4,968 nucleotides of DNA, taken from a virus (lineage: Duplodnaviria > Heunggongvirae > Uroviricota > Caudoviricetes). A program made the position numbers and the translations under genes. Shown one piece after another: positions 281 to 4,457 of the stretch. Every line of letters begins with the position of its first letter. Positions within the stretch are counted from its first letter, which is position 1. The stretch lies in the IMG/VR virus record IMGVR_UViG_2711768067_000002, positions 1-4,968 of that record. One strand, given 5' to 3'. The notes below the pieces were generated by a model. It saw only the letters and a program-made list of their open reading frames with translations, had not been told where the DNA came from and did no database searches.

Positions 281-481
281 TCAGGCAGCTTTGTTGTTCT
301 GTTTACCAAGTTCTCTGGCAATCATTGCCGTCGTTCGTATTGCCCATTTATCGACATATTTCCCATCTTCCATTACAGGAAACATTTCTTCAGGCTTAAC
401 CATGCATTTCGATTGCAGCTTGCATCCATTGCATCGCTTGAATTGTCCACACCATTGATTTTTATCAATAGTCGTAGTCAT
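281..481 (-). CDS. ral: Restriction alleviation protein Ral (66 aa)
   Basis: 66 aa ORF MTTTIDKNQWCGQFKRCNGCKL... matches the lambda Ral sequence as I recall it, with the same length and the same position left of N on the pL strand. AGGA lies about 13 nt upstream of the ATG. Confidence 0.85.
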   Translation of the reverse strand: MTTTIDKNQWCGQFKRCNGCKLQSKCMVKPEEMFPVMEDGKYVDKWAIRTTAMIARELGKQNNKAA

Positions 482-603: not shown

Positions 604-1501
<898 letters not shown>

Positions 1502-1682: not shown

Positions 1683-1745
1683 AGTATCACCGCTAGTGGT
1701 ATTTGTGTCAACACCGCTAGAGATATTTTATCACCGCAAATGGTT
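1683..1745 (-). promoter_or_regulatory. pL promoter with operators oL1, oL2, oL3
   Basis: Three 17 bp repressor-type sites: tatcaccgctagtggta (1685..1701), caacaccgctagagata (1709..1725), tatcaccgcaaatggtt (1729..1745). On the minus strand, -35 TTGACA (plus 1706..1711), a 17 nt spacer, and -10 GATACT (plus 1683..1688). Confidence 0.85.
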
Positions 1746-1928: not shown

Positions 1929-2549
1929 TTAATGCTGGGGAGTGATTTTTTTGTTGTCTGTTGGCTGGGTATTTTGTGGCGGCGCTTGCAAAGTGGAAGG
2001 CTGTTGCAAAGGTGCGTGGTCTGACTTTAAAGCTGATACCAGCCCGGGAATCGCAACTATTACAGCGATAATGACACTAAAAATGGCTAATCGTATAGAA
2101 ATACCCGACTGAACACCACTAATTGCGGTATTAACCCCTGTTATTTGTCCTTGAATTCCTTCGAATCTCCCATTAATTGCTTTTAAATCGCCAGCAGCGC
2201 TATCCATTTTTCCATCGATCTTGGACGATAGAGAGCTTATGGCCGCATTAAGTGATGCAAATTGGACATTAACGCTTTCACGAGATAGAGCCATGTCAGC
2301 CCTAATGGAAGAAGCAATAGACTCCATCTCTGCTTTATTAGCAGCTAAGCGAGCATCAAGTTCCTCTCTGCTGATCGTTCCCACTTCTTCCTCCGTTTGT
2401 GGCGGTTTTATGTAATTATTTTGCACCTTGGTGGGAGAATTATCAAATTCAGCCTCAAAATCGGAACCGCCAACAACCTTCAACCTCCGGCTTTCAGATA
2501 TGTTGGTGTCTTGCTTTCCATGATTATTTAAATTGCTGTCGTCACTCAT
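1929..2549 (-). CDS. Hypothetical 206 aa protein with a polar N-terminus, a predicted helical/coiled region, one C-terminal transmembrane helix and a Pro/Gln-rich tail; distal gene of the cassette in the rexB slot
   Basis: ATG at 2549..2547 overlaps the upstream ORF's TGA in an ATGA arrangement (translational coupling). Hydrophobic stretch RLAIFSVIIAVIVAIPGLVSAL near the C-terminus; small-residue-rich repeats (INGRFEGIQGQITGVNTAISGVQSGIS) precede it. No resemblance to RexB (144 aa, multi-pass) as recalled. Confidence 0.75.
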   Translation of the reverse strand: MSDDSNLNNHGKQDTNISESRRLKVVGGSDFEAEFDNSPTKVQNNYIKPPQTEEEVGTISREELDARLAANKAEMESIASSIRADMALSRESVNVQFASLNAAISSLSSKIDGKMDSAAGDLKAINGRFEGIQGQITGVNTAISGVQSGISIRLAIFSVIIAVIVAIPGLVSALKSDHAPLQQPSTLQAPPQNTQPTDNKKITPQH

Positions 2550-2980
2550 AATAGCTCTACGGTGAAAAATGATTCATTTTTATGAAGTTCATTTTTAGGG
2601 TCTTCATTATCTTGCAATCTCCCTATAACACTATACAGCCCTTTAGCTGGGACCCTAATTTCTTTCAATGTTACTATTACCTGTCCGCCAACCCCTGTTT
2701 CAAAATGGCTATCTTTCGTATCGATGAAAAGTGAAACTGATTCCGAAGAGCCGTCAGGGAATTGAATTTCCTCACCTTTTTTTATAATTAGGTGCGCGGG
2801 GATTACCATAATACCCAAATTATATCTTGAATTTGGTTTCAACCCGATCATACCAACCCTGAAATCAATTGATAGCCGCGCAGGAAATTCATTGCATGTA
2901 AAATTAAGCGTCGGTTGGTTGGGTTCTTCGCTGCTATCAAATGGGGTTATAAAAGATATTCTTTCTAAATTAAGTGCCAT
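2546..2980 (-). CDS. Hypothetical ~144 aa soluble protein; proximal gene of the cassette in the rexA slot
   Basis: Preferred start is ATG at 2980..2978 with AGGAG 5 nt upstream (minus strand AGGAGAATTTATG), giving MALNLERISFITPFDSS.... The ORF-track start (GTG 3034 / ATG 3031 overlapping the cI stop) lacks a convincing SD but is not excluded. No transmembrane segment, no recognisable catalytic motif, no resemblance to RexA (279 aa) as recalled. Confidence 0.7.
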   Translation of the reverse strand: MALNLERISFITPFDSSEEPNQPTLNFTCNEFPARLSIDFRVGMIGLKPNSRYNLGIMVIPAHLIIKKGEEIQFPDGSSESVSLFIDTKDSHFETGVGGQVIVTLKEIRVPAKGLYSVIGRLQDNEDPKNELHKNESFFTVELL

Positions 2981-3030
2981 AAATTCTCCTGCATCGCTGT
3001 ATGCTCTACGAGCATCTCGGCGACTTATCA

Positions 3031-3747
<717 letters not shown>

Positions 3748-3748
3748 T

Positions 3749-3820
3749 TAAATCTATCACCGCAAGGGATAAATATCTAACACCGTGCGTGTTGACTGTT
3801 TTACCTCTAGCGGTGATAAT
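3749..3820. promoter_or_regulatory. Right operator/promoter switch: oR3, oR2, oR1 with divergent pRM and pR
   Basis: oR3 tatcaccgcaagggata (3755..3771), oR2 taacaccgtgcgtgttg (3778..3794), oR1 tacctctagcggtgata (3802..3818). pR -35 TTGACT (3792..3797), 17 nt spacer, -10 GATAAT (3815..3820). pRM on the minus strand: -10 GATTTA (plus 3749..3754), -35 TAGATA (plus 3774..3779). Confidence 0.9.
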
Positions 3821-3835
3821 AATTGCATGTACTAA

Positions 3836-4045
<210 letters not shown>

Positions 4046-4160: not shown

Positions 4161-4186
4161 CATATGGTTCGTGCAAACAAACGCAA
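4140..4186 (-). promoter_or_regulatory. pRE-like promoter with CII-binding TTGC-N6-TTGC direct repeat
   Basis: Minus strand TTGCGTTTGTTTGC (plus 4173..4186) overlaps the cII 5' codons, as in lambda pRE; a -10-like TAAGTA lies upstream of it on the plus axis. Confidence 0.6.
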
Positions 4187-4457
4187 CGAGGCTCTACGAA
4201 TCGAGAGTGCGTTGCTTAACAAAATCGCAATGCTTGGAACTGAGAAGACAGCGGAAGCTGTGGGAGTTGATAAGTCGCAGATCAGCAGGTGGAAGAGGGA
4301 TTGGATTCCAAAGTTCTCAATGCTGCTTGCTGTTCTTGAATGGGGTGTCGTTGACGACGACATGGCTCGATTGGCACGACAAGTTGCTTCGATTCTCACC
4401 AATAAAAAACGCCCGGCGGCAACCGAGCGTTCTGAACAAATCCAGATGGAATTCTGA
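4164..4457 (+). CDS. cII: Transcriptional activator CII (97 aa)
   Basis: MVRANKRNEALRIESALLNKIAMLGTEKTAEAVGVDKSQISRWKRDWIPKFSMLLAVLEWGVVDDDMARLARQVASILTNKKRPAATERSEQIQMEF, near-identical to lambda CII. The ORF-track entry starts further upstream; the real start is the ATG at 4164. Confidence 0.95.
   Translation: MVRANKRNEALRIESALLNKIAMLGTEKTAEAVGVDKSQISRWKRDWIPKFSMLLAVLEWGVVDDDMARLARQVASILTNKKRPAATERSEQIQMEF

Follow-up and report, generated by a model that had tools for sequence, protein, structure and literature searches.

Phage lambda (J02459) and phage mEp332 (EF120456) carry the immunity regions closest to the one analysed here. The operator set with three CTAG tetranucleotides discussed below is already known: it has been in GenBank since 2007, in the mEp332 record EF120456, where the same variants are labelled as Cro/CI operators. 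The source paper of these records is Degnan et al. 2007 (Mol Microbiol 64:232). A passage of PMC8585504 credits Degnan et al. 2007 with the description of the cI-N interval as a hotspot of mosaic diversity, and a methods paper states that mEp332 has the immunity group of lambda (PMC3442831). A published consensus of the lambda operators is TAtCACCGCcaGTGaTA (PMC10742460). Sedhom and Solomon (2023) assayed operators of other phages, not the variants considered here.

The immunity region of the window and its relatives

The window, i.e. the whole stretch of 4,968 bp under study, is a lambda-type immunity region of an E. coli prophage (Table 1). Its genes and sites (N, oL, cI, oR, cro, cII and O) are 97-99% identical to those of lambda and mEp332. 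At least 80% of the window is present in 25 complete E. coli genomes, including about 13 whose resident prophages match it nearly at full length (99.2-99.7% identity over 98% of the window). The window is a mosaic: N-oL and cI-cII are closest to mEp332 (98.5% and 99.2% identity respectively) and the cassette between oL and cI to HK542 and HK244 (96.9%).

Table 1. Genes, operators and promoters of the window, with the bases that depart from lambda.
Feature	Position	Strand	Remarks
ral	281-481	-	
ORF in sieB position	691-1185	+	164 aa; phrog_1244 match (function unknown)
N	about 1178-1500	-	
oL1, oL2, oL3 and PL	1683-1745		
PL	1683-1711	-	-35 TTGACA 1711-1706, 17-nt spacer, -10 GATACT 1688-1683; hexamers as in lambda
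oL1	1685-1701	+	TATCACCGCTAGTGGTA; T1694 = position 10 (8'), C in lambda; CTAG 1693-1696; overlaps PL -10 and spacer
oL2	1709-1725	+	CAACACCGCTAGAGATA; T1718 = position 10, C in lambda; CTAG 1717-1720
oL3	1729-1745	+	TATCACCGCAAATGGTT; A1739 = position 11, G in lambda
Two-gene cassette, between oL and cI, where lambda has rexA/rexB	1929-3034	-	phrog_5820 and phrog_5893 matches
cI	3031-3744	-	237 aa
oR3, oR2, oR1, PRM and PR	3755-3820		
oR3	3755-3771	+	same as lambda
oR2	3778-3794	+	same as lambda
PR	3792-3820	+	-35 TTGACT, 17-nt spacer, -10 GATAAT; hexamers as in lambda
oR1	3802-3818	+	TACCTCTAGCGGTGATA; A3809, G in lambda; CTAG 3807-3810
cro	3845-4045	+	66 aa
cII	4164-4457		
O	after cII, at window end		start only

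The position between oL and cI, that of rexAB in lambda, is a hotspot for exclusion or defence genes. In the window it is occupied by two overlapping genes, whose products have 206 aa and 144-162 aa, the range reflecting the choice of the start codon; neither PADLOC nor Pfam, at its curated cutoff, returned a match for them. Searches of Pfam and PADLOC with the 164-aa product of the ORF in the sieB position likewise returned no match. The C-terminal part of this product contains two CxxC motifs (CAQC and CHRC), a pair that suggests a putative zinc ribbon.

Compared with lambda, the window has the same gene order, six 17-bp operators at the same spacing, unaltered hexamers in PL and PR, and the same Cro (66/66 residues), oR2 and oR3. 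It differs by CTAG in oL1, oL2 and oR1, where lambda has CCAG with a C at position 10, by the base at position 11 of oL3, by residue 2 of CI, which is Thr in lambda, and by its cassette, which replaces rexA and rexB. A near-identical CI, an identical Cro and six operators in the lambda arrangement, overlapping PL and PR/PRM, place the window by sequence in the lambda immunity group. Its CI shares 230 of 237 residues with lambda CI, the seven changes being T2A, K70N, G124S, R128K, D138G, S156Y and A173T (numbering with Ser as residue 1). In the N-terminal domain only T2A, in the arm, and K70N are found, so that the stretch from residue 3 to residue 69, with the recognition helix in it, is that of lambda.

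The resemblance with mEp332 goes further: all three CTAGs, the G>A of oL3, the changes flanking PR and PL, CI and Cro are the same in both. In contrast, the oL-cI cassette of mEp332 consists of one 345-aa gene, whereas that of the window is of the two-gene HK542/HK244 type, and the gene in the sieB position, sieB itself in mEp332, is another one in the window. Other phages share the variant operators only in part. HK542 and HK244, which have the cassette of the window, and CL707 carry the CTAG of oR1, ev099 that of oL1, and the CI of all four has Ala2; but the three CTAGs together are found in none of these phages, and their oL2 and oL3 are of the lambda type.

One could imagine that the operator and CI changes together make the prophage fully or partly heteroimmune to lambda, and the original prediction implied both this and a novelty of the operators. 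Three operators are indeed altered in parallel, and one of the seven CI substitutions lies in the DNA-binding arm. On the other hand, Cro is that of lambda, residues 3-69 of CI are conserved, and so are oR2 and oR3; moreover, wild prophages combine the T alleles with lambda-type alleles in all possible ways. Phage mEp332, whose oL, oR, CI and Cro are those of the window, is reported in the immunity group of lambda. These data largely refute a change of specificity, which we consider extremely improbable, and neither the novelty nor the heteroimmunity finds support. By analogy, i.e. on the strength of the published statement for mEp332, the immunity of the window would be lambda-like.

Changed bases in the operators and promoters

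The frames of the operators were set by the annotation of lambda J02459 and of records of wild lambda-immunity phages, mEp332 included. Neither the oL string (64 bp) nor the oR string (72 bp) needs a gap in its alignment to lambda; they contain 5 and 4 substitutions respectively. Read against J02459, the letters of the window bear out much of the original prediction: oL1 and oL2 do have T for C, in the sequences that it quoted; lambda does read CCGCCAG, as was stated there, the alignment giving a C at both places; oL3 has A for G at position 11 (base 1739); the same change recurs in oR1 (G>A at 3809, + strand); and a CTAG is created in each of these three operators. The base 3809 is position 8 of oR1 on the + strand but position 10 (8') when the operator is read consensus half first, G>A then being C>T. 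The prediction erred, however, in locating the change at the central base pair. The centre of the 17-bp operator is position 9 (C1693, C1717 and G3810), which is the same as in lambda, while position 10, or 8', is the base pair of the non-consensus half-site that lies next to it.

The three operators changed at this position are those that have CACCGCCAG in common in lambda. When the nine differences between the window and lambda are placed randomly in the 136 bp of oL and oR, at least three fall at one operator-relative position with P = 0.06, so that the parallel change in the window alone is only suggestive, and the case for its non-randomness rests on the population data presented below.

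The tetranucleotide CTAG itself is scarce in the window: four copies are present versus about 13 expected from dinucleotide-preserving shuffles, and three of the four belong to operators. The fourth, at 3059-3062, is within the 3' end of cI. The depletion of CTAG in the window together with its frequency in the operators could indicate selection, not mere tolerance.

Trivial origins of the change were considered. A sequencing error is ruled out: the same oL and oR strings are found in two independent sequences of mEp332 (EF120456 of 2007, an immunity-region record, and PV340541 of 2025, a complete genome) and in the prophage on the chromosome of E. coli fS25a, and short queries of the window type match 26 (31-bp oL query) and 39 (37-bp PR/oR1 query) complete E. 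coli genomes. A hotspot of Dcm deamination is ruled out as well, the sites being CCAGT or CCAGA and not CCWGG. Nor does the change make or destroy an obvious restriction site, GCTAGT and GCTAGA not being 6-bp palindromes. In the other direction, one might speculate on a bias of very-short-patch repair, turning CTAG into CCAG.

As oL1 and oR1 overlap the promoters, the change could also act on transcription. T1694 and A3809 each occupy -18 of a promoter, within the spacer of PL and that of PR respectively, and T1718 of oL2 is about 7 bp upstream of the -35 hexamer of PL (about -42). Furthermore, the first spacer base differs from lambda in both promoters (in PR, base 3798 is G instead of A), and in PR the bases 3821-3822, directly after the -10 in the discriminator region, are AA instead of GG. 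An adjustment of early promoter strength through the spacers and the upstream part of PL might be proposed on these grounds. Nevertheless, both promoters keep the hexamers of lambda at a distance of 17 nt, and the change in oL2 lies outside the core promoter. Besides, Lagator et al. (2017) analysed G>T at residue 32 of OR1, which is another substitution but affects the same base pair as the change of the window: the unrepressed activity of PR remained at 0.85-0.96 of the wild type (PMC5481185 supplements). It thus seems very unlikely that these changes are explained by promoter strength.

The PR changes at 3798 and 3821-3822 could alter the open-complex properties of this promoter; all three vary among wild loci (19, 37 and 44 of 147). 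Separately, three or four IMG/VR loci have AC>GT in the -35 of PR (TTGACT>TTGGTT, positions 41-42 of the oR string). As TTGGTT is expected to cripple PR, these loci may be decaying prophages.

Operator alleles in wild prophages

To count the alleles, 5,426 complete E. coli genomes were searched with short queries built so that any known variant breaks every 28-base seed and only exact haplotypes match. For PR/oR1, the CTAG was found with the lambda-type spacer in 177 genomes and with the window-type spacer in 39, making 216 genomes versus 174 for the CCAG of lambda, a set which includes the laboratory strain J53. For oL1-oL2, the haplotype T-G-C was found in 263 genomes, the lambda haplotype C-A-C in 214 and the window haplotype T-G-T in 26; the CTAG of oL1 is therefore present in at least 289 genomes versus 214 for the lambda allele. 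The T of oL2, counted solely through the 26 genomes with T-G-T, is less common. CTAG is thus the commoner allele at oR1 and oL1 in the wild, so that the lambda reference represents one allele among several.

Another sample was drawn from the viral contigs of IMG/VR; as it was anchored on the 5' end of cro, it is unbiased by the operator sequence. It comprises 147 loci, and the oL frequencies refer to 112. The CTAG of oR1 is carried by 101 of the 147, and the T of oL1, the T of oL2 and the A of oL3 by 35, 27 and 12 of the 112 respectively. The alleles of oL1 and oL2, only 24 bp apart, are found in all four combinations (C-C 65, T-C 20, T-T 15, C-T 12), which points either to recurrent mutation or to very short tracts of recombination or conversion. 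One locus, L016, illustrates this ambiguity: from -40 to +261 around oL1 it is lambda-like save the T, but its left flank is non-lambda, and a crossover inside oL1 therefore fits as well as a recurrent mutation. When oR1 is added, all eight combinations of the C/T sites are found. The T-T-A combination of the window occurs in 13 of 112 loci, and the haplotype with three CTAGs is a well-populated minority.

In these IMG/VR loci the natural variation of the operators is almost wholly confined to the central positions 8-12. Polymorphic sites amount to 13 of 30 at these positions versus 7 of 72 outside (Fisher P = 2e-4), and sites varying in at least three loci to 10 versus 1 (P = 1e-5), P values that are rough because the loci are related prophages and not independent draws. 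Position 10 is polymorphic in five of the six operators. This clustering agrees with the six operators of lambda itself, which show no consensus at positions 10-11. The original prediction thus keeps its merit in one respect: the change does belong to the middle stretch of the operator, where constraint is weakest, though not to the central pair itself.

The presence of all eight combinations, including the four of oL1-oL2, might also speak for a selection of the T alleles, which would set (for example lower) the affinity of CI at its three strongest operators, maybe in co-adaptation with Ala2 of the CI arm; the avoidance of CTAG elsewhere points in the same direction. The arm residue gives some substance to this idea. 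The window has Ala as residue 2 of CI (cI codon 3, 3736-3738), like 70 of the 85 wild loci whose cI is full-length. In a first sample of IMG/VR loci, Ala2 accompanies the oR1 CTAG in 58 loci out of 58; Thr2, which is the state of lambda and a minority one, is seen only alongside the oR1 CCAG. Moreover, the oL haplotype TGTTA accompanies the mEp332-type CI and oR over at least four different oL-oR distances, corresponding to different inserted cassettes.

Each of these associations can, however, be explained otherwise. Codon 3 of cI and the changed base of oR1 are separated by about 70 bp, a distance at which linkage explains the association, and only three of the four gametes of oR1 C/T and CI residue 2 are present, i.e. 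a simple nested genealogy. As for oL, cassette swaps by double crossover at the conserved borders of the cassette would also keep oL and cI together. Apart from this, one lambda-immunity clade has a CI with about 10 substitutions in the C-terminal domain (T154A, A173P, E175D, R196K, Y210F, M212I, S218N, S220N and V221I) and I54V; its operators are of the lambda type, save the central C/T sites.

Repressor contacts and the effect of the change

Indirect readout of non-contacted central operator bases is said to have been described by Koudelka et al. in 1987 for the repressors of 434 and P22. The present case may resemble it: a base change close to the operator centre, outside the helix-turn-helix contacts, might modify the affinity through DNA shape, and CTAG brings a flexible TpA step into the operators of the window. 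Two differences should nevertheless be kept in mind: the change falls beside the central pair and not on it, and lambda CI possesses an arm that contacts central guanines. The original prediction held that the repressor does not contact this base directly, which is the picture of 434 and P22 and not that of lambda, where, at least on the consensus half, guanines close to the centre of the operator are contacted by Lys3 and Lys4 of the N-terminal arm (PMC5222340). These contacts speak in favour of the adaptive tuning raised above; against it, the crystal structure 1LMB does not resolve the arm on the non-consensus half, which is the half that holds the change (PMC2194778).

The effect to be expected at 8' may be approached from two sides. 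The non-consensus half-sites of OR1 and OR3 differ at no more than three positions, and 8' is among them. According to Hochschild, Douhan and Ptashne (1986), positions 5 and 8 together with the N-terminal arm reportedly underlie the preference of the repressor for OR1 over OR3, and the effect at 8' may for this reason not be negligible. On the other hand, the substitution G>T at the same base pair of oR1 (residue 32 of Lagator et al. 2017) raised the CI-repressed expression by 1.4-1.8-fold, a mild effect on repression, while C>A at the symmetric position of the consensus half (position 34) mostly raised it by 4-7-fold (PMC5481185 supplements). These values, although obtained with another base than that of the window, lead us to infer a small effect of the change on binding.

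Nor do the alleles resemble the operator-constitutive or virulence mutations of the lambda vir type, which weaken repressor binding to the point of escape from repression or unstable lysogeny. Hundreds of complete E. coli genomes harbour them in resident prophages, CTAG being the majority allele at oR1 and oL1, and the change affects 8' and not the strongly conserved outer positions.

Altogether, we consider that the T alleles represent a tolerated polymorphism which tunes the affinity of CI at most, with an immunity specificity like that of lambda (probability of about 0.8, the size of the effect being deduced from the comparisons above). The window would be a module of the lambda immunity group with the mEp332-type allele, and its three CTAGs reflect a natural C/T polymorphism at position 10 (8'). 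Judging from the sequences, the operators should still be bound by their own CI, in spite of its seven substitutions, and by a Cro identical to that of lambda, and the arrangement of three sites per side, overlapping PL and PR/PRM, is kept. The replacement of G.C by A.T at 8' would concern the part of the non-consensus half that is the least likely to cost much binding energy: at this base the helix-turn-helix presumably makes no base contacts, leaving the flexible N-terminal arm as the sole part of CI that could reach it. The substitution would be tolerated because the base belongs to the least constrained central stretch and is reachable by this arm only. At most, the affinity of CI for oL1, oL2 and oR1 would be slightly tuned, the specificity of immunity being unaltered.

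The stronger proposal, that the alleles were selected for tuning, appears unlikely to us. In its most complete form it would hold that the 8' C/T sites are recurrently mutated or exchanged and selected as a knob of CI occupancy, possibly matched to Ala2 or Thr2; laboratory lambda, with CCAG at the three sites and Thr2, would then be an atypical extreme of tight binding, and CTAG would be kept in the operators despite its general loss in E. coli DNA. This scenario is doubtful. If adaptive tuning were nevertheless true, wild lambda-type switches would have another set-point of induction than laboratory lambda.

As a discovery, the triple-CTAG set carries little weight, since the exact operators have been annotated for so long in a phage assigned to the immunity group of lambda. 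It is rather a caution for the use of lambda as the reference: in wild lambda-immunity prophages, oR1 and oL1 carry the CCAG of the textbooks less often than CTAG. And if the alleles tune the occupancy of the repressor, they would provide a natural series for learning how a well-understood switch is adjusted in the wild.
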